This document shows positions 17,339 to 31,562 of a stretch of 64,000 bases of DNA, piece by piece. The stretch is from Acidobacteriota bacterium (lineage in GTDB: Bacteria; Acidobacteriota; UBA6911; RPQK01; JAJDTT01). The stretch spans positions 2,368,001 to 2,432,000 of the forward strand of contig CBDCJH010000002.1 in NCBI GenBank assembly GCA_965217775.1, read 5' to 3'. The notes beneath the pieces are model-generated. The model ran no database searches, was not told the DNA's origin, and saw only the letters and a program-made list of their open reading frames with translations. Position numbers and translations under genes: made by a program. Within the stretch, counting starts at the first letter, position 1. Every line of letters starts with the position of its first letter.

Positions 17339-18162
17339 GTACTCAACGCCTTGCGGCATCACTGACTATTGCACCCGTGCTCAAAGGCGGCCCGGAAGTT
17401 ACCCGTGCCGTGCTCAACGCCTTGCGGCATCACTGACTATTGCACGCAGAGAAACGCCAACATCACCGACATCATCAACGAGTGCTCAACGCCTTGCGGC
17501 ATCACTGACTATTGCACCAGACGCAGGCGCGCTCGGATCCAGTACTTTTCGAGTGCTCAACGCCTTGCGGCATCACTGACTATTGCACCTGCACCTGCGG
17601 ATCGAACAGTTCTCCGATCGGTTGTGCTCAACGCCTTGCGGCATCACTGACTATTGCACGTTGGCCGCCCAGATGGTCCAGAGCAACTCGAGCTAGTGCT
17701 CAACGCCTTGCGGCATCACTGACTATTGCACCCGGAAACCGACGCTGGGAACGACTGGATTGATGAGGTGCTCAACGCCTTGCGGCATCACTGACTATTG
17801 CACACGCGGAGTCGTCGCCTATCTCCGGCTGATTGAAAGGTGCTCAACGCCTTGCGGCATCACTGACTATTGCACTCCTCACTTTCGCCGAGCTGGGTGG
17901 AGGACAGTCGAGGTGCTCAACGCCTTGCGGCATCACTGACTATTGCACTCCTCACTTTCGCCGAGCTGGGTGGAGGACAGTCGAGGTGCTCAACGCCTTG
18001 CGGCATCACTGACTATTGCACTCGAGGACGGACGCGACTGCCTCGGCGACGTCCAGTGCTCAACGCCTTGCGGCATCACTGACTATTGCACACGGCCCAG
18101 CGGTCGGTCGAGGGCGGGATCAACATGTGCTCAACGCCTTGCGGCATCACTGACTATTGCAC
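17339..18162 (-). CRISPR. CRISPR array: 12 repeats of 36 bp, 11 spacers of 34-37 bp (10 unique)
   Basis: Repeat (+) GTGCTCAACGCCTTGCGGCATCACTGACTATTGCAC; the copy at 17339 is variant (GTAC), marking the trailer. On the minus strand it has a GCC-GCAA-GGC hairpin and TTGAGCAC handle, typical of Cmx8 systems. Confidence 0.98.
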
Positions 18163-18414
18163 AGCATGTCTGTAATCGATTGACTCTATTGGACAAATAG
18201 GCTGGCGTGTCATGTATCTCCTTGGATCTCGGGTCGCCCATGCTCGATTCATGCTTCCCCACCATCGAAGTGCTTTTGTTGCACCACTTATGCACTGACA
18301 AGCACTTCAGAGACTACTGAAATTCCAAAAATCGTTGAAATTGCTTGCGATCTCCCGCCGTTATCCTTCGTCCGCCTTGGTCCATTCGGTAGTGCTTGCC
18401 ATCACGCAACCACG
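18163..18414 (-). promoter_or_regulatory. CRISPR leader
   Basis: Lower-GC non-coding gap between cas2 and the perfect end of the array. Confidence 0.65.
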
Positions 18415-18699
18415 TTAAACGATGTCAAAGCGCTGCGGGGAGTCGTCCCACGTTCTGTTTCCAGGCCTCTCTACGATCTTGCAGCGCGGTGAGAGCCGGA
18501 TCACGAGCAGATCGTCTTCCTCCTCCATTGCCATCTCCAATTGGTGCCGAGCTTGTTCCATCTGTACCCGTGTCAAACGACATCGGAACAACGAATACTG
18601 CAACCGTTCTCCATAGCCATTGACAATCCTATGCACGCGACGCCACCGTTTCGGATCACGGATGTCATAGCTGAAGAGATACCAGTGACGTTCACTCAT
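18415..18699 (-). CDS. cas2: Cas2
   Basis: YLFSYDIRDPKRWRRV...GERLQYSLF; ATGA overlap with cas1. Confidence 0.95.
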   Translation of the reverse strand: MSERHWYLFSYDIRDPKRWRRVHRIVNGYGERLQYSLFRCRLTRVQMEQARHQLEMAMEEEDDLLVIRLSPRCKIVERPGNRTWDDSPQRFDIV

Positions 18700-20336
18700 C
18701 CGCGCAGGCGCATCCGGGCGAACAGACCTTCCTCGCCACTCCATTCCTTTTCCAGCAGCCGTGCCTCCAACTCGATGGAGCGAGCGTAGCTCAAGGAGTA
18801 CTTCAACACGGGATGCTTCCAAGTTTCTTGCTTGCGTTTTTCAAAGAGTCGTATGGCCAGCCGTTTACCCTCATCCGAAAGCCAAACCCGTTTCTTGCTT
18901 ACCTGGAGATGTTGGTCAGTCCATTGCCGCCGGTTGATGGACGCCACCAACGGCATATCCCACAGCGTGGTCCGAAACAGCTCCATCAAGTCCAACACGA
19001 GGGGGTGAGCGGCACTCCGGGGCGCATGGAAGAAACCGATCGTGGAATCCAATCCCACGGCGATGATCGCGCCCATGACCTCACGGTACAGCAGGCCATA
19101 GCCGAATGAGAGGGCAGAATTGAACCCATCACGAGGCGGCCGCCGACTGCGCTGGGAGAACACCATCAATTCCTCCTGAGGGGACAACAGCAGGGCGAGA
19201 GCCGAAAAATAGTTGCGCGCCGCAATGCCTTCACAACCACGCAAGGCACCAGCGTTGGCACAATGCTGTACTTGTCGGAGCTGTGCGCGTATGGCGATCA
19301 GGGATTTTCTCGCCTCATCTCTTACGCCACGGACGCGAGAATGTCGGATAATGAACCGCAACTGGTTTTCGATTTTGGCTTTCGCCAGACGGCGCGCCAA
19401 GCGCAGGCACAATTCCTTGTTCTGCAATGCCCGGTACTGTCGGAGACGGCGGTGAGTGCCCGCAGGCGGGGCCACGCCGCCGACGTACCAGCCGCCACCG
19501 CTGATCCAGTGGACGCCAATATCGTTGGCGGCGGAGAAGTGGATAGCCTGCGATGTGATTTGTGCGTTACCGTGCAAGATGACGGCTCCGACATCCATGC
19601 CGGGAAACTTCTTTTCCTCTCCGTCCAGCTTGCGCACGACGAGCTGCAAGCCGGAACGTCTGACCTGCGCCCCATGATCCACGATGTGCAGCACCCGGCG
19701 AGCGTCGTCCTTCGGAAAGAGGCGGCGGGGCTTCGAGATGGGGTCCAATGCTTCGGCCTCGCTGGCCGCAGCAGCCAAGCGTGACTCTTCCGGGAGGCAG
19801 ACCGGAGCGAGCGAACACTTGGCGCACAAATTCTCGTTGCTCGTCACCGGCGGACGCTCCAGGGAAGCCGACAATTCCCGGGCGCGAGCCACCGCGCGTC
19901 GCAATCGCTCCCGGGCCGCGTCATCGATGACGACACGCACCGTCGTATTGCTGGCGTGGTATCGGATGCGTCCCTCGGAAACCGGCCTCCCGAAATGTTC
20001 GGAAAGGAGCTCGGCGTAGGCCGTCACCTGGATTTTGTCCGTTTCCCACGCATCATTCCCTTTCGAGCGTCCTTTCTTGTGTTCGACGGCGATGAACTTT
20101 CCGTCGCGATAGCGAGCGAAGTCCACCTTGCCCCGAATACCCCAGGTGTCACTCGAAAGCTCCAGGCTCCGCCATTCCCGATTCTTATCTACTTCTGAGT
20201 CATGCAGGGTACGCCCGGCGTGCACGCGGTGGTCGGCTACACGAATTTCTTCCACTTCCTCCAGATAGAACAGGCGCTCGCAATACGCGAGTGCATGCAA
20301 CGCCATGACACGAATGGGCATTTTGGTGTCACTCAC
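18696..20336 (-). CDS. cas1: Cas4-Cas1 fusion
   Basis: N-terminal YCERLFY, GKVD...EHKKG and CAKCSLAPVC (Cas4 Fe-S); Cas1 motifs EGIAARNYF, NSALSFGY, LDLMELFR. Confidence 0.95.
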   Translation of the reverse strand: MSDTKMPIRVMALHALAYCERLFYLEEVEEIRVADHRVHAGRTLHDSEVDKNREWRSLELSSDTWGIRGKVDFARYRDGKFIAVEHKKGRSKGNDAWETDKIQVTAYAELLSEHFGRPVSEGRIRYHASNTTVRVVIDDAARERLRRAVARARELSASLERPPVTSNENLCAKCSLAPVCLPEESRLAAAASEAEALDPISKPRRLFPKDDARRVLHIVDHGAQVRRSGLQLVVRKLDGEEKKFPGMDVGAVILHGNAQITSQAIHFSAANDIGVHWISGGGWYVGGVAPPAGTHRRLRQYRALQNKELCLRLARRLAKAKIENQLRFIIRHSRVRGVRDEARKSLIAIRAQLRQVQHCANAGALRGCEGIAARNYFSALALLLSPQEELMVFSQRSRRPPRDGFNSALSFGYGLLYREVMGAIIAVGLDSTIGFFHAPRSAAHPLVLDLMELFRTTLWDMPLVASINRRQWTDQHLQVSKKRVWLSDEGKRLAIRLFEKRKQETWKHPVLKYSLSYARSIELEARLLEKEWSGEEGLFARMRLRG

Positions 20337-21013
20337 TACTTTCTTGTTATTCTCCTCCGATGCTTCCGACCGTTGGCTAGATCCGGAGGCTCAATCCGGG
20401 GAAGTTGTGCTCTATCAGGAGGTGCCAGCGACACTGTTCGCAGATCCCCAGTTACAAACCGGGTCCCTTTGGAACCGACATGGTCCACCCAAACCGGGAG
20501 AGTGATTCGCCCCTGATCGGAGCAAATAAATAATGATCCCGACTCACTACTTCCGTAAAAGAGAGAAACTTCATCGACAAGATGGGTGCTCTCGCCAAAA
20601 GACAGTCCACCAAATCGCTGAACGGCTTCAGGACACTTTAGAGCACATTCTACCCTCTGCTCCAAAAAGGGGCTCTTCGCTCTTTCGTCTGTCGAGTCCA
20701 ACCACAATATGAGCCGAACGTTCGTGAGTAATTCCTGTTGCCCGGGAGTTCGATTATTGCCAACGCCCATCGGAAAACGTTTGATCTTAATTCTCCATAA
20801 TGTTCGAAGCACAGTGCTTCTGGCAGGAGTTCCGACAAGAACAGGAGAAATCCGGCAACCGACATGGCGGGAGCGGTCTAATTCCCCCACTAGCGACAGG
20901 AGAAATCCATAACAGGTTGACGGAGGTGGTAATGCTTCCGTCTCTAGATACTCTCGAGCCAGACCCCTACGAAAACACGCGACTGGAACCGATACAGATA
21001 TGCCAAGCATCAC
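20336..21013 (-). CDS. cas5: Cas5 (DevS/Cmx5)
   Basis: VPVACFR...LPPPSTCYGFLLSLVG, GLSFGES. Confidence 0.92.
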   Translation of the reverse strand: MMLGISVSVPVACFRRGLAREYLETEALPPPSTCYGFLLSLVGELDRSRHVGCRISPVLVGTPARSTVLRTLWRIKIKRFPMGVGNNRTPGQQELLTNVRLILWLDSTDERAKSPFLEQRVECALKCPEAVQRFGGLSFGESTHLVDEVSLFYGSSESGSLFICSDQGRITLPVWVDHVGSKGTRFVTGDLRTVSLAPPDRAQLPRIEPPDLANGRKHRRRITRK

Positions 21014-21014
21014 C

Positions 21015-21911
21015 CTAAACTTTCAGTCTTTCAGCAACAGCTTGGCCTGTTTTCCGTACTCCAAGGAAAACCTCAGCTCCTCTATCTTTCAACCGTTGGG
21101 CTGTCGAAGTTGTAGCAAAGCCACCACCGATAAAAAGTTCCGTGGCTTGGATATCTTCGGCCCTAACCCGTTCAAGTAAAACTGGAGCATCAACCCTTCG
21201 GCCTTTTTCTTCAAAAATATAGAGAAGTCGTGGTGCTGGATCATGAGTCAATCGAAATATCACACTCTCCGGTGAAAAATCGAAGAGAAACCGACCATGA
21301 TTTCCTGCGACCTCTGCCAGCTCGCAGAGGGCCATAATGGCCATTCTCGCTCTGTTTTTCTCCCGGAGGCGTTCCGGTGTCATTGCAATACCGTATTGAT
21401 AGCGTGTCGCATGGAGCTCAGTGCCGTAGGGAACAGGATTAACCCCTCTTTTTGCAGCACTCGGGGTTGCTCCAGGGCTGGCCGCGTTAAAAGTCAAATC
21501 ACCTGACCACGGAACCAGAGAAATTGCCCGTGTCATTTCTAGCACCGCACGGCGAACGGTTACACTTCCGGCTTGTCCTTCTTGCCTTGCGGCTTCGGCA
21601 GTCATATATCCAAGTAGGTCATCATCAATATAAGTCTCCCCGTCATTACTTGCCCACCCTTTGAATTGCTGATCCTGCCAAGTGTTTGTCCCCGTCACGT
21701 CATCCCATTTTCTGTTCGTGCCTCTATCCGGTTCACATCCAGTCAGCCGACGTCGTAGAGCAAAGCGAATAGCCTCGGCGCTAACTGTCGTATGTACCTG
21801 ACCATGCCAGAGCAATTTCTGGAGAGTTGTCACATTTCCATCAGTTTCTCCACGGTTATTCGCAGCCGTTCCGTGGTGGGTAACGATCGCAGCAAAAAGA
21901 TGTTGACTCAT
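21015..21911 (-). CDS. cas7: Cas7 (DevR/Cst2)
   Basis: ANNRGETDGN, VSAEAIRFALR, DDDLLGYM, VAGNHGRFLFDFSP. Confidence 0.92.
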   Translation of the reverse strand: MSQHLFAAIVTHHGTAANNRGETDGNVTTLQKLLWHGQVHTTVSAEAIRFALRRRLTGCEPDRGTNRKWDDVTGTNTWQDQQFKGWASNDGETYIDDDLLGYMTAEAARQEGQAGSVTVRRAVLEMTRAISLVPWSGDLTFNAASPGATPSAAKRGVNPVPYGTELHATRYQYGIAMTPERLREKNRARMAIMALCELAEVAGNHGRFLFDFSPESVIFRLTHDPAPRLLYIFEEKGRRVDAPVLLERVRAEDIQATELFIGGGFATTSTAQRLKDRGAEVFLGVRKTGQAVAERLKV

Positions 21912-22315
21912 ATTTGTTCCTCCGTTTCGTCGCGTAACTCAGACTCAGCCAGATCAATATCTTCCTGTTTCTTTCCCTTGTAACAGGCCAGTGCAATCAA
22001 TGATAGGTCTCGCGCAAGCTGCCATCTTTCATTGCTCAGCATTGGGATAACTTGCCGCCAATTCTCTCTTAGCACATTATTTGATCCGGCCCGACTCCAA
22101 AGGTCGGCAAGAGCATGTCTTAGTGCATCGGCGGTCTTTGCTCCCATGAATGCAAGGCGTTGTCTCTCGTACTCCCTACGCATACGGTTCTTCATCGCCG
22201 CTGGCCTTCCGGTATTCTCAGCGGCAATGCGCCCATACCGACACCGCATAGCCTCGTGGACGGCGAGAACGACTGTTGTCTCCCCGGGGTTATCCCAGAT
22301 AGTTTCTTGCATCAT
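21908..22315 (-). CDS. cas11: Putative Cas11 translated internally from the cas8 3' end
   Basis: AGAGGAGGA (22325-22333, minus) 9 nt before in-frame ATGATG. Confidence 0.65.
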   Translation of the reverse strand: MMQETIWDNPGETTVVLAVHEAMRCRYGRIAAENTGRPAAMKNRMRREYERQRLAFMGAKTADALRHALADLWSRAGSNNVLRENWRQVIPMLSNERWQLARDLSLIALACYKGKKQEDIDLAESELRDETEEQI

Positions 22316-23485
22316 AGTGTGTAGTCCTCCTCTCTCGTATTTCAGGGAATCACGAATAGGCTTCGGTTTCTTCATCGATACATCTTTCGCTGTCATAAGA
22401 CGAGTAAACCCACTGTACCAAGGAAGCCCAGCTACAAGGTTATCGGCGACCAGTGGTCGCACATGACTCTTCGCCCAGAAGCCCCCACCATCCTCTCTGG
22501 TCTTTCGGCTTTTCGGAGGGAAACAGCGCATTGCGATCTCGAATTGGTCAAGCGCAGTATCGGTTGTTCCAGTGCTAACATCCGTTACAATTGAAGGAGG
22601 TTGTAGGCGTGAATTCCAATCGTTGGGACAACACCAGACACAGCGAAGTGACGAAATAGATTCATCAACAAGCAGGTTTGTGCTGCGCAATCGTAGTTCT
22701 GCCTGGAGAGCAGCGTCTGCTAGATTGGCGATTTGGCAATCTCGGACCGTGCGCGGGCACAATCCTGGCAGTATGTACTGCACTTCCGAGAGGCTATTAA
22801 AATTTGGTATAAGTAAGGCTGCCCCGGGTTTATATCTCCTTCCACCTCGACTATTAACCTTTTTCCCGCCTGCCCTCAAAGCGAACACCCCAATTGGCGC
22901 AAACAGGAGGGGAAGAAGAAGCTGTGCCGATTGAGTTGCCTGACTATTCTTATACGCAGCGTGCCTTTGTACTGCTCCCGGAAATAGCATTCGTGTTAGC
23001 CCTACTTCGCTTTGCAGGCCCTTGATCATAAGCTTGCTTCCGTCTCGCTGATGCTTGTACCACGATAGAGGCAGGTAGCGGTAAGAAACCGTAAGTTCGT
23101 CAACTTCGTAGGTTTTTTCAACTGCTGGCCCGCTCCCTCTTGACTTGGGTCCATGGTCATAAAGACTTAGCAACAGTCCTTCCTGCAACGCTGCCCGTAC
23201 TTCGAGAGGTGGAGGATTTGGTCCATGCTGTCCTGGCAGATAGATAAGCCCCTCTTGGATCTGATAGGCAAGACTGAACAATCGATCAAAAAATGGCTTA
23301 GCCCCCACCATTTCATTCCATTTGAGGGTCACGGATCGTTCATCGATGGTCCATTGACCTGGTGGACCTTCCATATCTGAGAGATTATTTTCGATCCAGC
23401 GCAACGTACTGACCAGCCCTCCCACCCCAGCTCTGTGGAAAGCGGTCATACCAGGCTCGAACAGATCACATTTCAGCGATTCCAT
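21908..23485 (-). CDS. cas8: Cas8 large subunit, Cmx8 type
   Basis: GMTAFHRAGVGGL N-terminus, W..ARDL.LIALA.Y C-terminus; lies between cas3 and cas7. Confidence 0.88.
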   Translation of the reverse strand: MESLKCDLFEPGMTAFHRAGVGGLVSTLRWIENNLSDMEGPPGQWTIDERSVTLKWNEMVGAKPFFDRLFSLAYQIQEGLIYLPGQHGPNPPPLEVRAALQEGLLLSLYDHGPKSRGSGPAVEKTYEVDELTVSYRYLPLSWYKHQRDGSKLMIKGLQSEVGLTRMLFPGAVQRHAAYKNSQATQSAQLLLPLLFAPIGVFALRAGGKKVNSRGGRRYKPGAALLIPNFNSLSEVQYILPGLCPRTVRDCQIANLADAALQAELRLRSTNLLVDESISSLRCVWCCPNDWNSRLQPPSIVTDVSTGTTDTALDQFEIAMRCFPPKSRKTREDGGGFWAKSHVRPLVADNLVAGLPWYSGFTRLMTAKDVSMKKPKPIRDSLKYERGGLHTMMQETIWDNPGETTVVLAVHEAMRCRYGRIAAENTGRPAAMKNRMRREYERQRLAFMGAKTADALRHALADLWSRAGSNNVLRENWRQVIPMLSNERWQLARDLSLIALACYKGKKQEDIDLAESELRDETEEQI

Positions 23486-25695
23486 CTGGCACCCCGTTCA
23501 GGATCGTAACTTATGTGTTCAGGAGGTGGCACATAGGCAAAAGCCACCTTGGGCCACTGTTTCCAATCCAGTCCCCTTGGCATGGTCATTGGGATCCGGA
23601 CCCGTACGGGATCTACCTCCCCGCGTCGTACAGCTGCAGCGTCACTCTGCAGTAACACTGTTATTCCTGACATACTATCTCTGAGGTGACGTGGCATTGT
23701 CTCAAATCCGCCATCTATCCACGCACTTTCTATTGGTTGTCGCGGATCTCCTTCGTCTAATGCGCTCCAAGTCCGGCCTAGATCTTGTTGAGACACAGAT
23801 CCCATTCCAAGATGTTCTAGCCATAAACGAGACACATGGAAGGGATCTGGGTGAGCTTGGCTTTTGTACGGTGCAGAACTGTTAGGTTCAATGACGAGGA
23901 ATGGCTTCGGCGGAATTGGATCCTTGGGTGTTGATCGTCGATTGAGACGCCCCAGCCGTTGAATAAGCGGCGCAATCGGTGCCAAGTCCGTAACTAGAAG
24001 GTCTGCTGAAAGATCCAAGCTCATTTCTGCGACTTGTGTCGCAATGGTGAGTACCGGCTGCTCGTCGCGAAAGGCATCAACGATTCGAGCATGCTGGCGG
24101 ACACGATCCTCGTATCGAAATCGGCTATGGTATACGAGTGGTTGGATGCCACGTGCGTGTGCTTTTTCAGCAAACGATAGAGCTCGATTTACAGTATTGG
24201 TGACCCACAAAATTTTCTCGTTGTCCCGGAAGCTTCTTTCTACGACATTCCACGGATCATCGCCGACGAGCCTTTGATAACGGGGGAGTAATTCACGCTC
24301 TATCGGACCAGGAACTGTTTCAAGACTCTCCCCAATAGAACTTAGTGCCTCTACCAGTGCTTTGCGCCGGGCCTGTGGAAGGCTTGCCGTCATCAGGAGG
24401 CAAGGCAGGCCGCGACAAGTCAGGAGAAAGCGAAGTAAACTGGAAAATAAGCGCTCATCGTAAGCATGGATCTCATCAAAAACAAATGCGGCTTTAACTA
24501 ATGCGGGCCACGCGAACATTCCCCTCTTATGATTTTGAGTCAGACCGAGCACGGTATCCACTGTACAGCTCGTAATGTAGGTAGACCATGCCTCAAGCGC
24601 AGCAAGTGGATCAGAATGTTCCCCATCTTCGTCAACACCTAGAATCTCCAAGTCCACAGCGGCTCGGCCATGAATTAGTCGGGCGTTTAACGCGGGATCT
24701 ATCAAATAGTCACGGAATCCTTCGGTTGCGGTTCCCGTTGTAGGATAAGCGAAAAAGAGACATTTTCCCGGAGCGCGTTGCGCAGCCCAGACATATGCGC
24801 CCAGAGTCTTCCCACTGCCACAGCCAGCCTCAGCGAGGACAATACGCGCTGTTGTTTTGCCAAGCGCTTGTTGAAAGGGCCTCAGCGGCAGCCCCTGCAA
24901 ACGTCCACAAACAATTTGTTGTAGTTGATCTGGGCTTAGATTTTGTCTGAAGACGCTCTGTATCCACCGGGAGATCTTTCTCCCCTCTCTCGGCAGCGCG
25001 GACCCTGCGACATCGGAAGCAATAACACAAGCTTTCACAGCTGCAAGAAACCTGCGTTTCTCATCGTTACATGAGTGCCAGAAGATCCCGGCTTTGATAT
25101 GTGCCATTTTCAAGAGGTGATGGGGAGACTCGGTTCCAACAAGTTTCCACGATAAATCAGTTACAGAAGGTGGCTCTTCAAGTTTTAGCTGTGTGGTGCC
25201 AATAGAGAGCGTACTTTGAAAATCGGAATGTCCTAGTAATAAAGGTAGCCATATTCCTGTACCAGGAGAGGGCTCTCCAGGAGGAAACTTCCGATGGTGT
25301 CCAGCAACCGACCAGAGCAAAAATTGTAGGTCTTCAGGTTCCTTCAGAGCTGCGGATAGCCATCTGTGCAGTGCTGTCCCTTGTAAAATCAGTAGCGATA
25401 GAGCTTCATGGCGAATTGCTTGGTGATGCTGAAGTTGATGTCTGACCATCGCCTGAAACTGTTCATTCGCCTTACCAAAATCATGGCAAAAAGCTGCAAG
25501 GAGAACGGTTCGCCGAAAACGTTCTTCCCACGTTCCTACGGATAGACCTACAGCCGATAGTTGAGCTCTGGCAGTTTCATCTAACAAAGTCTGAGCCGCA
25601 GCCATGACGTTTTCGGTATGGCCGGGTAGCGTTTCAGCTCCACGGGGCGCATCTGGATGCTTACTATTCTTTGCCAGAAGCCTTTTGAAGGTCAC
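23473..25695 (-). CDS. cas3: Cas3 HD nuclease-helicase
   Basis: CHDFGK, GCGSGKT, FDEIH, MTAS, QRLGRLNR. Confidence 0.95.
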   Translation of the reverse strand: MTFKRLLAKNSKHPDAPRGAETLPGHTENVMAAAQTLLDETARAQLSAVGLSVGTWEERFRRTVLLAAFCHDFGKANEQFQAMVRHQLQHHQAIRHEALSLLILQGTALHRWLSAALKEPEDLQFLLWSVAGHHRKFPPGEPSPGTGIWLPLLLGHSDFQSTLSIGTTQLKLEEPPSVTDLSWKLVGTESPHHLLKMAHIKAGIFWHSCNDEKRRFLAAVKACVIASDVAGSALPREGRKISRWIQSVFRQNLSPDQLQQIVCGRLQGLPLRPFQQALGKTTARIVLAEAGCGSGKTLGAYVWAAQRAPGKCLFFAYPTTGTATEGFRDYLIDPALNARLIHGRAAVDLEILGVDEDGEHSDPLAALEAWSTYITSCTVDTVLGLTQNHKRGMFAWPALVKAAFVFDEIHAYDERLFSSLLRFLLTCRGLPCLLMTASLPQARRKALVEALSSIGESLETVPGPIERELLPRYQRLVGDDPWNVVERSFRDNEKILWVTNTVNRALSFAEKAHARGIQPLVYHSRFRYEDRVRQHARIVDAFRDEQPVLTIATQVAEMSLDLSADLLVTDLAPIAPLIQRLGRLNRRSTPKDPIPPKPFLVIEPNSSAPYKSQAHPDPFHVSRLWLEHLGMGSVSQQDLGRTWSALDEGDPRQPIESAWIDGGFETMPRHLRDSMSGITVLLQSDAAAVRRGEVDPVRVRIPMTMPRGLDWKQWPKVAFAYVPPPEHISYDPERGARWNR

Positions 25696-26339
25696 CGCTT
25701 CAGAGCCCTCGCGACGGGTACAAAAACCCCACCTCCCATCCGGCGACGCCCTCCCAGGCCGAGTTCCTGCAACCGGATGGATTCCTCGGCGAGTAATTCC
25801 GTCGCCAGCATGGCGTAACCCACAATGCGCTTGCCCCTCAGGCGCACGACACGGCGACTGGGATCGCGGTGACCGCTTCCCGCACGGCCCTGCGGCACGC
25901 GAAGAACCCGGCCGTGTATGCCCAGTGAGGTCAATTGCCGGGCGATCTCAGCGTCGAACCGGACCGGATCATGTCCGTTCTTGGTGGTCACGATCCGACA
26001 ATACAATGTCGCCGCAGGAACTAGTGCGCGGGCCTCGGCAACGCCCACTCGGAGTTTGCATCCGCCCAAGTTGAGACTTTTTCCGGCCAGTTTCAGGGAT
26101 CGCGGCAACAGATCGGACGGCAGGCGGAGCCCAAAGCGAGCATTGCGGCCGATCAGCCGCCTACCGTTCCCGAGGCTCGGCCCGCGAATGGTATGCAGGC
26201 CGATATGCGGGTTACCGTGCATCCAGCGATCGTTTTCGGTCTCCAGTATTCGGGACAGAGCACCGAACAGCGAATAGCCGTGATCGGTAGGTACCTCCGT
26301 TCCGGTGACGCGAAAAAGAATGTCAAGAGTCGGATTCAT
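25692..26339 (-). CDS. cas6: Cas6 (MYXAN type)
   Basis: VPTDHGYSLFGALS; C-terminal GLGGRRRMGGG loop. Confidence 0.92.
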   Translation of the reverse strand: MNPTLDILFRVTGTEVPTDHGYSLFGALSRILETENDRWMHGNPHIGLHTIRGPSLGNGRRLIGRNARFGLRLPSDLLPRSLKLAGKSLNLGGCKLRVGVAEARALVPAATLYCRIVTTKNGHDPVRFDAEIARQLTSLGIHGRVLRVPQGRAGSGHRDPSRRVVRLRGKRIVGYAMLATELLAEESIRLQELGLGGRRRMGGGVFVPVARALKR

Positions 26340-26472
26340 ATCAAGGAAATTTCAATCGTTTTAGGAACGGAAATCTTTAGCCAGCCTGACTGCAATATCC
26401 CATTTTTTTGCTGTGGAGCGCTGACTAATCAGAATAGCGAACATAGGTGACACAAAAGAGGCGTTCTTCGGC

Positions 26473-27703
26473 GGGTGCACGACACGAAAGTGGCGCTGGA
26501 GGTGAAGTTCAGGCAACGTCAGGGATTGGGCACGCTCCTCGCTGACAGTTATAGTAACTGTCAGCGAGGAGCGTGCCCATGTCCCCAGACCTTTCCCCTC
26601 AGCTCCAACTCCAACGACGACGCCAGCAGTTATTGCAGGCCTTGCTCGAACTCGGCGATCTCCGGCCTGGGTCTCTAGTGGCCCGTTACCGCCATTGTGG
26701 CAAGCCCAACTGTCACTGCGCCTAGCCCGGCGACCGGGGCCACGGGCCCAGTTTCTCCTTGACCCGTCGCGTGGCGGGCAAGACCGTGACCAAGATCATT
26801 CCCCCGGGGCCAGCCGTCCAACGGACTCGAGAGCAGATCGACGAGTATCGCCGATTGCGGAGCTTGGTGAAGGAGTTGGTGGAGGTCAGCGAGCAAATTT
26901 GTCAGGCCAAGCTGGACGCCTCTCCGGCCCGGACGGGCCAAAAAAAGGGCTCCAAAAAACGCTGGCCCAAGAAATCCAGCGAGAAGTCCGGACCCTGATG
27001 GGACCCGCGGCCGCCGCCGCCCTGGACTTTGAAGCGCTGGAGACAGCCCTCCGGCGTCAAGTTCTCGAGCTGGCGGCCCGGACGGTGGAAACGCATCTGA
27101 ACCAGGATCATTCCGACGCCACTCCCAGCCATAACTGCTCCTATGGAGGGAGCGCGCGCTACGCGGGTCGGCGGACCAAACAGTTCGTCACCGTGCTGGG
27201 ACCGATGCGATTGGCGCGCGCCCACTATCACTGTGGGGATTGCGGCCATGGCTTCTGTCCCCGAGATCGAGCGCTGGGACTGGAGGGGAGTTCTTTGTCT
27301 CCCGCGCTGATGCGGATGGTGGGGGCAGTTGCCTCCATGGTCAGCTTTCAGGAAAGCAGTCAGTTGTTGGAGGAGTTGGCCGGAGTGGACGTAGGAACCA
27401 AACAGGTGCAGCGGTCGGCCCAGGCTCTGGGAGAGCAAGTCGCGGGCTATGAGCGCCAGACCCGGGAGCCCGACTCGGGGCTCCCCTTGCCCGCGACCCT
27501 CTATCTGGGCTTGGACGGCACCGGCGTGCCGATGCGATCGACCGAGGTTCAGGGGCGGGCGGGCAAACAACCCGACGGGTCGGCCCGAACCCGGGAAGCC
27601 AAGCTCTGTACGGTCTGGAGTGCCGAGCGACGGGACGCGGAGGGTCGGCCCCAGCGCGACCCGGGCTCGGTCACTTACACCGCGGCCATCGAGAGCGCGG
27701 CCG
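26473..27703 (+). mobile_element. ISKra4-family IS remnant (DUF6788 ORF plus truncated transposase)
   Basis: GGGTGCACGACA end-like motif at 26473; ORF 26579-26998 (RPGSL...CGKPNCHCA*) has TAG at 26723; AAAAAAAG at 26940; transposase (CGHGFCPRD, DGTGVPMR, REAK) cut off after AAIESA. Confidence 0.8.
26527..26579. repeat. Perfect 25-bp inverted repeat with 3-nt loop
   Basis: TGGGCACGCTCCTCGCTGACAGTTA-tag-TAACTGTCAGCGAGGAGCGTGCCCA. Confidence 0.95.
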
Positions 27704-27973: not shown

Positions 27974-28141
27974 TTATGTGGAACTCAACATAACATCCAA
28001 TATGTTGCGGTCCGGATTATGTGGCGGACAGTCCGTATCATCCTGCTGCACATGAGAACACGCCGTATCTCAGCAACATAATTATCTGACTGGAAGTCGT
28101 TCGACCATAATCATGTCTTCACCCCACAAGGAGGCACGATC

Positions 28142-29435
28142 AGGTTCGAGGCCCTGTTCATCGACCGCGGCACGATAGCCCGTTATCGCTGCGAACCGTT
28201 GCTGGAAGAACGGCTGAGCTACCTGAGGCATTGCGCGCAGGAGGGCGCGCGGCCGCTCACATTACGCACGATCGCAGCGGCTCAGATCACGCTGATTCGT
28301 CTTCTGGACTTGCGAGCAGGCGAGCGCGTCAGCGTGCCCCGGATCGAGGCGGCGGCCGAACGTCGATCGAGTCGCCCGGCGCAACCGAGGGTGCGCCGGA
28401 TCTTCGTCAGCCGCGCAGTGCGATGGCTACGCTTCGCGGATCTGCTCGATGAGCCCTGTAGGGTGCGGCAACGACACGCCCACGTCGCCGAGGTCACGGT
28501 CTTCCGGGAGTGGATGCGCAAAGAGCGCGGATGGTCCGAGGCGACGATCCGCAATTGTTGCCATACGATTGACCGCTTCTTCGACTGGCTCGGCGAGTGG
28601 GGCATTGCCCTGGATGCGGTCGTTGTCACCGACATCGACCGGGCTGTCATGCGCTGGCACGGCCGCGGCTGCAGTCGGAGCACGATCCGCATTTACGGGC
28701 AGCGTCTGCGCACTTTTTTCCGGTTCGCCGAACGCCATGGCTGGTGTACACGGGGGCTGGCTGACGGGATCATGCCGGTGCGGTTCCATCCCGGTGAGAC
28801 GCTCCCGAAGGGACTCAACCGGGACGAGGTGCTACGCCTGCTCGCAACCACCGAGGGCAACCGGCAGGCCGACCTTCGCGACCGTGCCATCCTGATGGTG
28901 CTGATCGCGTACGGGTTGCGTGCCAGCGAGGTCGCCGGCCTCCGACTCGATGATCCGGACTGGGAAGAGGAGACGCTACGGGTACGCCGCCCCAAGTCGG
29001 GATGCACCCATCACTATCCGCTTTCCCGCGGCGTCGGGCAGGCGATCGTGCGTTACCTCACCGAGGTTCGTCCCCCGCGCCCGGAGAGGGCGCGCCTTGG
29101 CGCGTTGAATCGCCGCGTCCTGCGCCGTTCGTCCCCCGCGCCCGGAGAGGGCGCTGTTCCTCACGCTGATCGCTCCGACCCGTCCGGTGACCCGGTAGGC
29201 AGTTTCGAACGTCGTCAGGACACGCCTCGATCGGCTCGGTATCACCGGCAAGCGTCGCGGTGCCCATGCGCTTCGTCATGCTGCCGCCCAGCACCTGCTC
29301 GACCACGGCCTGTCGATCAAGGAGGTCGGCGATTACCTCGGCCATCGCAGCACCTCGTCCACCGCAGTGTACGCCAAGGTGCAACTCAGCACCCTCCGTG
29401 AGGTCGCCGACATCGACCTGGAGGGCCTGACATGA
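28142..29435 (+). pseudogene. ritA: RitA tyrosine recombinase, inactivated
   Basis: AGG at the expected start after AAGGAGG; 61-bp frameshifting insertion; TAG at 29196; restored frame has YGLR, HALRH, LGH and Y. Confidence 0.85.
29066..29154. repeat. 28-bp direct repeat flanking a 33-bp insert
   Basis: GTTCGTCCCCCGCGCCCGGAGAGGGCGC at 29066-29093 and 29127-29154. Confidence 0.95.
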
Positions 29436-30385
29436 TGCTCCGGGATGCGGTCAACGACTATATCGCCTGGCGTCAGGCCCATGGCGCCAAGTTCGACACC
29501 GGCGCATATCTATTGCACCGGTTCCTGAAGCATGTCGGCGGGAGCGCCGGCTGCGATGCTGTCTCCCCAGCCGACGTTCTGGACTTCCTTGCCGGTAAAG
29601 GTCCGCTCACCCGGTATCGGGCCGGCAAGTACAGCGTCCTGGCCGGCTTCTACCGCTACGCGATCAGCCGCAGCTACGTGATCCGGTCGCCGCTTCCGGC
29701 GCGCGATGATGAGCCGACTCGACCGCGGTCGTCACCACCTTACGTGTACTCCCGTAACGAGTTGCAACGCTTGTTCGACGCCATCGATGTCAGTCGGCAA
29801 CGTTCAATCCAGCTCGACGCCGATACCCTGCGGGCACTGCTCCAGCTTCTCTACGGCGCGGGACTGCGATTCGGTGAGGCCCAGCGCCTGACCCTCGACG
29901 ATGTGGACCTGCCCGATGCGCTGCTGACCATACGTAACACCAAGTTCTACAAGACCCGCCTCGTTCCCGTCTGCCGGCAACTTGCCGACGCGCTGAAGAC
30001 CTATGCCGCCCGGCGCGCAGAACGCCCCTTCCCCAAGGGCACGGCCTCGACCTTCCTCGCCAACCGCGACGGGACGCCCTTGGTCCAGCGCACCGCCGCG
30101 CACGCGTTCACCAAGCTGCTCAAGGAGGCCGGAATCGAAGGTCGCAACGACGGGCGGCGAGCTCCGTGCTTTCATTCCCTGCGCCATGCCGCAGCCGTAC
30201 ACCGGCTGGAGTCCTGGTACCGGCAGGGCGCCGATGTCCAGCGACTGCTGCCGACGCTATCCATCTGGCTCGGCCACACTGATCTCAACGGCACCCGGAT
30301 CTATCTGTCGATGACGCCCGAACTCCTGCATCAGGCTTCGGTCCGTTTCGACGCCTACGTCAACGGAGGAGGAGACCATGAGTGA
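29432..30385 (+). CDS. ritB: RitB tyrosine recombinase
   Basis: AGLRFGE, TKFYKTRLVP, HSLRH, LGH, Y. Confidence 0.9.
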   Translation: MMLRDAVNDYIAWRQAHGAKFDTGAYLLHRFLKHVGGSAGCDAVSPADVLDFLAGKGPLTRYRAGKYSVLAGFYRYAISRSYVIRSPLPARDDEPTRPRSSPPYVYSRNELQRLFDAIDVSRQRSIQLDADTLRALLQLLYGAGLRFGEAQRLTLDDVDLPDALLTIRNTKFYKTRLVPVCRQLADALKTYAARRAERPFPKGTASTFLANRDGTPLVQRTAAHAFTKLLKEAGIEGRNDGRRAPCFHSLRHAAAVHRLESWYRQGADVQRLLPTLSIWLGHTDLNGTRIYLSMTPELLHQASVRFDAYVNGGGDHE

Positions 30386-31373
30386 TCCCCGCACGCTCGG
30401 CCCCTGGCTGCGCCGATTCCTGGCCGAATACATCGTCACCGAGCGCAACCTCGCCCGCAACACACAGAAGAGCTACCGCGATACCTTCGCACTCCTGCTG
30501 CCGTTCGTCGGCGCCAAGGCCCGCAAGCCAGTCGAACGGATCGCGGTGCAGGACCTCACGGCCCGGCACGTGCGCCAGTTCCTCGACTATCTCGAGGATG
30601 ACCGCGGCTGCTCCGTGCAGACCCGCAACCAGCGGCTGTCGGCGATCCGCGCCTTCGCACGCTTCATCGCCAGCCGCGATCCCGAACCTATCGAGTGGAG
30701 CGGCAGTATCCGTGCGATTGCCTCGAAGAAGGCCGTGCCGAAGCCGATCGGCTGGCTCAGCAAGACCGAGATGAAGGACCTGCTCGAGGCCCCGGACCGC
30801 CGAACGCCGAGAGGCCGGGTCGAACACGCCCTGCTCCTGTTCCTCTACAACACCGGGGCACGCGTCTCCGAAACGACTCAGCTCGTGGCAGGCGATCTGC
30901 AAATCGGACGACGCGGCGGCGGGCAAGCGCTCGTCAACATCCACGGCAAGGGCCGAAAACACCGACAGTGTCCGCTGTGGCCCCGGACCGAAGCCGCGCT
31001 CACCGAGCTCTTGCAGGGACGGGCAGCCGGGGATGCCGTCTTCCTCAGCCGGCAGCGAAGAGCCTATACTCGGTTCGGAGTCTACCGGCTCGTCGAGCGC
31101 TCTGCGGCCCGCGTACCGTCGCTCGGCGGAAGGAGGATTACGCCTCACACAATCCGTCACACCAGCGCCTGCCACCTGCTCCAGGCCGGCATCGATCTGA
31201 ACACGATCCGCGCTTGGCTCGGTCATGCCAGCCTCGATACGACCAACATCTACGCCGAGATCGACCTGGAGATGAAAGCCAGGGCCATGGCGCTCTGCGA
31301 TGCCGCCGAGCCCGGATCGGATCGCCCGTGGAGGGCAAACATGGGACTGATCGCCTTCCTGGCCGCGCTCTGA
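30378..31373 (+). CDS. ritC: RitC tyrosine recombinase
   Basis: TRNQRLSAIR, YNTGARVSE, GKGRK, HTIRH, WLGHASLDTTNIY. Confidence 0.9.
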   Translation: MSDPRTLGPWLRRFLAEYIVTERNLARNTQKSYRDTFALLLPFVGAKARKPVERIAVQDLTARHVRQFLDYLEDDRGCSVQTRNQRLSAIRAFARFIASRDPEPIEWSGSIRAIASKKAVPKPIGWLSKTEMKDLLEAPDRRTPRGRVEHALLLFLYNTGARVSETTQLVAGDLQIGRRGGGQALVNIHGKGRKHRQCPLWPRTEAALTELLQGRAAGDAVFLSRQRRAYTRFGVYRLVERSAARVPSLGGRRITPHTIRHTSACHLLQAGIDLNTIRAWLGHASLDTTNIYAEIDLEMKARAMALCDAAEPGSDRPWRANMGLIAFLAAL

Positions 31374-31562
31374 GTGAAGGAGATTATGTTGCTGAGATGC
31401 GGCGTGTTCTCATGTGCAGCAGGATGATACGGACTGTCCGCCACATAATCCGGACCGCAACATATTCGATGGTCATTGACAGCTCGCGAGCGCAGATTCT
31501 TACTTCGCCATCGAACGGTCAATGCGCATTTCGACCCGCACGGCCAAGTCCGAGCTTCCTGA

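Follow-up and report, generated by a model that had tools for sequence, protein, structure and literature searches.

The stretch of Acidobacteriota DNA analyzed here, 64,000 nucleotides long and referred to as the window, contains a mobile element of the RIT type (Table 1). Three adjacent tyrosine-recombinase genes, ritA, ritB, and ritC, lie between terminal inverted repeats of ~89 bp (27994-28082 and 31383-31471), and all three open reading frames match the Pfam family Phage_integrase, which bears out the original prediction that this is a RIT element. The first gene, ritA, is split by two copies of a 28-bp sequence with 33 bp of other DNA between them. Upstream of the element lies a CRISPR-Cas system of type I-MYXAN, and an ISKra4-like insertion sequence (26467-27702) sits between the cas6 gene of that system and the RIT; its transposase match (E = 1.2e-28) is below the curated cut-off, and four more copies at ~94% identity are found in the genome.

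Table 1. Features of the interrupted RIT element (window coordinates) and of the type I-E systems of the same genome (coordinates on its contig C2, G000:C2).
Feature	Position	Strand	Description
Whole RIT element	27994..31481	+	Limits from homology to the paralog G000:C2:1689032-1692458 and from inverted self-matches
ritA, upstream part	28082..29065	+	SAM-like N-terminal domain (Phage_int_SAM_1) and first half of the catalytic domain; Phage_integrase positions 3-84 of 172
Neo-repeat copy 2	29066..29093	-	'Leader-distal'; identical to copy 1
Inserted spacer	29094..29126	-	33 bp, unique in the genome; missing from 5/5 other RIT copies and from the contigs of 4/4 runs
Neo-repeat copy 1	29127..29154	-	'Leader-proximal' in the likely minus orientation; G at position 1, GCGGG at 16-20, C at 28
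ritA, downstream part	29155..29435	+	Out of frame through the additional 61 bp; Phage_integrase positions 112-169 of 172 for 29199-29419
ritB	29432..30385	+	Intact tyrosine recombinase, 317 aa; Phage_integrase E = 8.4e-24
ritC	30378..31373	+	Intact tyrosine recombinase, 331 aa; Phage_integrase E = 2e-27, SAM-like domains
Type I-E system 1	C2 ~870.9-880.7 kb	-	Array 870942-872127, cas genes ~872.2-880.7 kb
Type I-E system 2	C2 ~3399.8-3410.9 kb	+	Array 3408480-3410890

The two 28-bp copies are identical (0/28 differences, 100% identity) and start 61 bp apart. Because the bases just outside them differ at both borders, with g at 29065 against c at 29126 and g at 29094 against t at 29155, the lengths of the repeat (28 bp) and of the insert (33 bp) are exact; self-comparison and flanking bases thus confirm that an exact duplication with unambiguous borders surrounds the insert, as first described. 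The 33-mer is single-copy in the 6.43-Mb, two-contig genome, so that the genome search proposed with the original prediction returned no second copy, and the runner-up match spans only 14 nt. The 28-mer occurs three times in the genome, twice at the ritA locus and once in a paralogous RIT (C2:1691360-1691387). No inverted repeat was found within or at the insert, and a tandem duplication is ruled out, since the 33-mer resembles neither flank nor the rest of the genome. On the minus strand, the 28-bp unit has GCGGGG at positions 16-21 and the insert begins with G, both as had been claimed. The insert begins with G on the plus strand as well, so its first base is weak evidence and does not fix the orientation.

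Without the 61 bp, the reading frame of ritA is continuous again, as predicted and as is evident from the sequence and from comparison with the paralog. What the prediction had missed is a second lesion: an in-frame TAG at 29196-29198, 42 bp downstream, remains after the removal. It reflects a C-to-T change that is private to the window copy, position 29196 being C in the paralog and in three of the four public sequencing runs considered below, and A in the remaining run (X2). The event that added the 61 bp would have inactivated, or further inactivated, ritA. The paralogous RIT has decayed too: relative to the window copy, its ritA lacks one base and its ritC has gained one, and its RitB has a His-to-Pro change at a position that we take to belong to the catalytic motif of the recombinase.

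Every other copy of the element that covers the site is empty (5/5: the paralog and four copies in two congeners). The paralog, 97-99% identical to the window copy, has a single 28-mer and no 33-mer; the BLAST alignment of the two elements breaks exactly at the 28-mer, and the 61 bp are the sole indel longer than 1 bp in the full 3.4-kb alignment. A search of the genomes of 61 relatives found the RIT in three congeners, and the four copies that span the site (three in genome G007, one in G004) all show the 28-mer once, without the insert. The same holds for four public runs of other samples, in each of which a Logan contig joins 29065 to 29127 and skips the 61 bp. Given the empty allele in the other copies, the locus represents a gain of 61 bp, made up of the 33-bp insert and 28 duplicated target bases, and not ancestral sequence; a comparison with other RIT copies, suggested at the outset as a check, thus agreed with an insertion in all five copies and all four runs. 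In the paralog, the same 28-mer has remained empty, which is what a rare event would lead one to expect.

The insert itself was found in none of the public read sets, and no run contained half of the sampled words; the four runs above, coming from other samples, speak neither for nor against the insert in this strain. Sponge and marine metagenomes and metatranscriptomes (runs X2-X7) contain uninserted copies of the RIT, or close relatives of it (window 28600-29600), at 0.32-0.39 of the sampled words; of these, X2 alone is among the four runs whose contigs were compared above. The insert is seen in this assembly only and in none of the public runs found, and the contamination estimate of the assembly is 7.47%; both would suit an assembly or consensus artefact, in which case the organism would lack the 61 bp. 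We nevertheless regard such an artefact as very improbable. The contig measures 6.29 Mb, and the flanks of the site are collinear with the paralog. The private substitutions around the site, such as the T at 29196, mark the window RIT as a distinct locus rather than a collapse of two copies. In addition, assembly errors are not known to copy the geometry of native arrays, with a unique 33-mer framed by 28 bases duplicated without a mismatch, and presumably would not do so.

The I-MYXAN system upstream of the RIT was considered as a source of the insert and ruled out. It occupies 18696-26339 and comprises cas6/cmx6, cas3, cas8a1/cmx1, cas7, cas5, and a cas4-cas1 fusion, and its array (17339-18176) contains 12 repeats of 36 bp at a spacing of 70-73 bp, a geometry that cannot yield 28 + 33. 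The misfit of this adjacent 36-bp-repeat system had been recognized in the original prediction, and the cas genes are now typed as I-MYXAN. Two adjacent spacers of the array are identical (17838-17910 and 17911-17983).

A Cas1 profile search of the genome revealed two further cas1 genes, and a periodicity scan placed arrays with a 61-bp period next to both. They belong to two complete type I-E systems on the same chromosome, each with cas3, cse1, cas7, cas5, cas6e, cas1e, and cas2e. The misfit of the neighboring system had led to the proposal that type I-E cas1 and cas2 genes should be sought elsewhere in the genome or in a previous host; they exist, with 28/33 geometry, on the chromosome that carries the RIT, and the previous host is not required. 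Genes were called with NCBIfam models and their cut-offs. In system 1, cas3, cse1, cse2, cas7, cas5, cas6e, cas1e, and cas2e all score above the cut-offs of type I-E models; system 2 has the same gene set, but the open reading frame at the cse2 position has no match and cas6e falls below its cut-off. The Cas1e scores are 358 bits for system 1 and 276 bits for system 2, against a cut-off of 215.6 bits. Aligned with E. coli Cas1 (5ds4; E = 2.4e-122), the Cas1 of system 1 conserves the Glu, His, and Asp columns, presumably the catalytic residues, and judging by their sequences, cas1e and cas2e of both loci are apparently intact.

The ritA locus has exactly the geometry of the native arrays: 28 bp for the repeat, 33 bp for the spacer, and G as the first spacer base. 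Array 1 consists of 20 identical 28-bp repeats and 19 spacers, of which 18 are 33 bp and one is 32 bp long, and array 2 of 40 identical 28-bp repeats and 39 spacers, 37 of them 33 bp and two 34 bp long. The first base of the spacer is G in all 19 cases in array 1, and C in 24, G in seven, T in six, and A in two cases in array 2. Some spacers are duplicated within array 2 (10-11 recur as 12-13, 37 and 38 are the same, and 3 is nearly identical to 36), and ~0.7 kb downstream of it lies a degenerate remnant of three repeats with a mutated repeat sequence (C2:3411611-3411760).

The genome was also scanned for 28-mers repeated at a distance of 48-75 bp, with pairs retained at 24 or more matches of 28. 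Seven loci have the distance of 61 bp: the ritA locus, three type I-E arrays, and three imperfect pairs. The latter (C2:399557, 3039472, and 5056679) were rejected as further neo-CRISPRs because they are pairs of REP-like palindromic elements that recur genome-wide. The pair at C2:5056679-5056770, first taken as a second neo-CRISPR, is intergenic and consists of 29-bp units with two mismatches, 61 bp apart; it contains a REP-like 14-mer present at no fewer than 35 places in the genome, no alignable empty site was found in the relatives searched, and it is probably made of two adjacent REP-like elements. A MITE-like repeat of ~160 bp (C2:5056432-5056589) recurs at more than 45 other places with 94-100% identity, and dozens of copies are present in this genome and in 8/8 congeners searched.

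How far the ritA target resembles a native repeat can be judged position by position. The minus-strand 28-mer agrees with the repeat of array 1 at 15/28 positions and with that of array 2 at 14/28, and the block CGCGGGG at positions 15-21 is common to all three, so that the alignment with the native repeat suggested in the original prediction works for both arrays. Agreement of at least 15/28 with repeat 1 is reached by only 0.39% of strand-specific genomic 28-mers. Goren et al. 2016 (PMC5039180) state that GCGGG in the second inverted repeat (IR2) of the type I-E repeat anchors a ruler, with the spacer inserted 8 nt past its end, and that both inverted repeats are important for efficiency. 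In the minus-strand unit, GCGGG lies at positions 16-20, its end 8 bp short of the leader-distal integration point, in keeping with the IR2 anchor rule. GCGGG at these positions occurs in 26,915 of 12,868,126 strand-specific genomic 28-mers (0.21%), and together with G at position 1 and C at position 28 in 0.024%. The plus strand of the 28-mer has no such anchor motif, and the likely orientation is therefore minus. Among the RIT copies, GCGGG is confined to the two in this genome, the four congener copies reading GCAGG or GCAAG, a post hoc comparison that covers few genomes.

The remainder of the target is less repeat-like. The IR1 region (positions 6-12) agrees with repeat 1 at only 3/7 positions and lacks the motif expected 16 bp from the integration point, which lends no positive support and is compatible with a rare, inefficient event. 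The flank of the locus is GC-rich coding sequence, with no leader-like AT-rich stretch. The unit can form a 6-bp GC hairpin at positions 1-17, whereas the native repeats fold at about positions 5-22.

The origin of the 33-mer was sought in several sequence collections. It has no exact match in viral contigs, and blastn against phages and plasmids gave best E values of about 0.9-4; its central 22-mer was absent from metagenome contigs. In genome contigs, the 22-mer had three hits, in metagenome-assembled genomes of three phyla, with 23-25 of the 33 bases matching. These were rejected as chance, since the matches do not extend beyond the 22-mer and the genes concerned are unrelated, sharing by coincidence the heptapeptide encoded there. 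Across 76 genomes of the order, allowing up to three mismatches, only the ritA locus itself was matched. Thus, the viral, phage, plasmid, metagenome, and genome collections yielded neither a protospacer for the 33-mer nor an AAG-type PAM, and the control was equally empty: of the 58 native spacers, none had a protospacer in the phage collection, where two array-like repeats in Salmonella records were the sole hits, and the native spacers had no match in their own genome outside the arrays. The missing protospacer says little, since the native spacers fared no better in the phage collection.

A foreign origin of the 33-mer is accordingly unproven, and this leaves room for an event unrelated to CRISPR: a staggered break whose 28-nt overhangs were filled in and joined by 33 bp of filler, or the footprint of an unknown element that duplicates 28 bp. 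Either would have to hit the native 28, the native 33, and the anchor register (0.21%) by coincidence, in a genome with two type I-E systems. The genome has no copy or partial source of the 33-mer beyond 14 nt, and there is no inverted repeat in or at the insert; moreover, no transposon family that duplicates 28 bp of its target is known to us. We consider an origin of this kind highly unlikely.

Taken together, the 28/33 geometry, the empty alleles, the type I-E systems in the same genome, and the IR2 anchor support the reading put forward originally. The locus is likely the product of a natural off-target type I-E spacer integration, i.e., a one-spacer 'neo-CRISPR', by a complex encoded in the same genome. 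We infer the following course of events. A Cas1e-Cas2e complex carrying a prespacer of 33 bp would have docked on the ritA 28-mer, held there in part by the IR2-like GCGGG, and would have carried out two transesterifications on opposite strands of ritA, 28 bp apart. In the minus orientation, the leader-distal attack would have fallen 8 bp after GCGGG, as in a genuine repeat. Gap repair would then have duplicated the 28 bp, leaving repeat, spacer, and repeat in place and shifting the frame of ritA. Since no difference has accumulated between the two 28-mers, the integration probably took place recently.

System 1 is the more likely culprit of the two, since a leading G is found in 19/19 of its spacers against 7/39 in array 2, a likelihood ratio of roughly 5. 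Cas1e scores above the cut-off in three of nine genomes of the genus, and not in the two genomes that bear the four congener RIT copies, again a post hoc observation on few genomes. For the Cas1e of system 1, no equally close ortholog was found in the eight other genomes of the genus (best ~292 bits, compared with 358), which suggests that system 1 was horizontally acquired. The same observation could be turned in favor of an earlier host, in which the same chemistry was performed there, or by a type I-E system since lost, and the RIT arrived already scarred. RITs are mobile elements, window copy and paralog have diverged by ~1-2.6%, and both cas systems and RITs move between genomes. Yet the nearest relative of the window copy is the paralog in its own genome (97-99% identity, against about 95% for the congeners), and these two share the lineage-specific GCGGG variant of the 28-mer. 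With two fitting type I-E systems in this genome, there is no need to invoke another host, and the identity of the neo-repeats again suggests a recent event. An arrival in the scarred state is thus unlikely, and integration within the present genome remains the better account.

As a functional CRISPR array, the locus falls short: it has one spacer, no leader-like flank, and a hairpin outside the Cas6e register. With its hairpin out of the native register, the unit would be unlikely to be processed by Cas6e, and since the likely orientation is also antisense to ritA, the locus is probably an inert scar. There is a slim chance that it represents more than this, namely the birth of a CRISPR array, with antisense transcription, weak recognition by the type I-E machinery, and the addition of further spacers, or else one instance of a recurrent natural knockout of mobile elements by adaptation modules. 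In the first case, the one-spacer locus would be the seed of an array whose repeat sequence is itself new.

Two consequences have been proposed for off-target integration by Cas1-Cas2: insertional mutagenesis, as a cost of adaptation, and the emergence of new CRISPR arrays. Here, a single genome offers an occupied and an empty allele, candidate enzymes, native arrays that serve as a ruler, and a target that obeys the IR2 anchor rule, so the hypothesis can be tested directly with the proteins of the strain and the 28-mer. The locus also suggests a search rule, a repeat-length duplication around a spacer-length insert, with which the natural scarring of genomes by adaptation modules could be surveyed.

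In the laboratory, off-target integration and neo-CRISPR loci were reportedly obtained by Nivala, Shipman, and Church in 2018 (Nat Microbiol 3:310) with over-expressed E. coli Cas1-Cas2. The ritA locus resembles these neo-CRISPRs in the enzyme family (Cas1e, E = 2.4e-122) and in having repeat, spacer, and repeat at a site outside an array. It differs from them in that the E. coli loci came from laboratory over-expression, whereas the ritA case is natural, with an empty allele in the same genome and in relatives. According to 10.1101/148544, which cites that study, off-target integration 'can spawn novel CRISPR arrays', and for nature the study offered 'circumstantial evidence in two other species'. 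PMC7054753, also citing it, describes off-target events elsewhere in the genome, detected by shotgun sequencing. For natural off-target integration outside an array with an empty allele, no description was found among the short passages returned by a full-text literature search.

Compared with canonical type I-E acquisition, as described in PMC5039180, the ritA locus has the 28-bp duplication, the 33-bp spacer with G in the place of the PAM-derived base, and the GCGGG ending 8 bp before the leader-distal site. In contrast to canonical acquisition, it has no leader, an IR1 match of 3/7, a hairpin at 1-17 instead of about 5-22, and a target within coding sequence. In P. furiosus, the off-target sites of Cas1-Cas2 share features with the repeat according to PMC6698737, but that work concerns another CRISPR subtype, assayed in vitro on plasmids, and a different repeat length. 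Transposons and casposons offer a further parallel, in that a direct target duplication flanks the insert and arises by staggered transesterification; unlike theirs, the insert in ritA is just 33 bp long and has neither terminal inverted repeats nor a gene. Insertion sequences and casposons typically make short target duplications, unlike the 28 bp seen here, which is the length of a type I-E repeat. The ritA locus would thus belong to a known kind of event, of which it is a new and unusually clean case from nature; until now, the process has been demonstrated chiefly in laboratory experiments.
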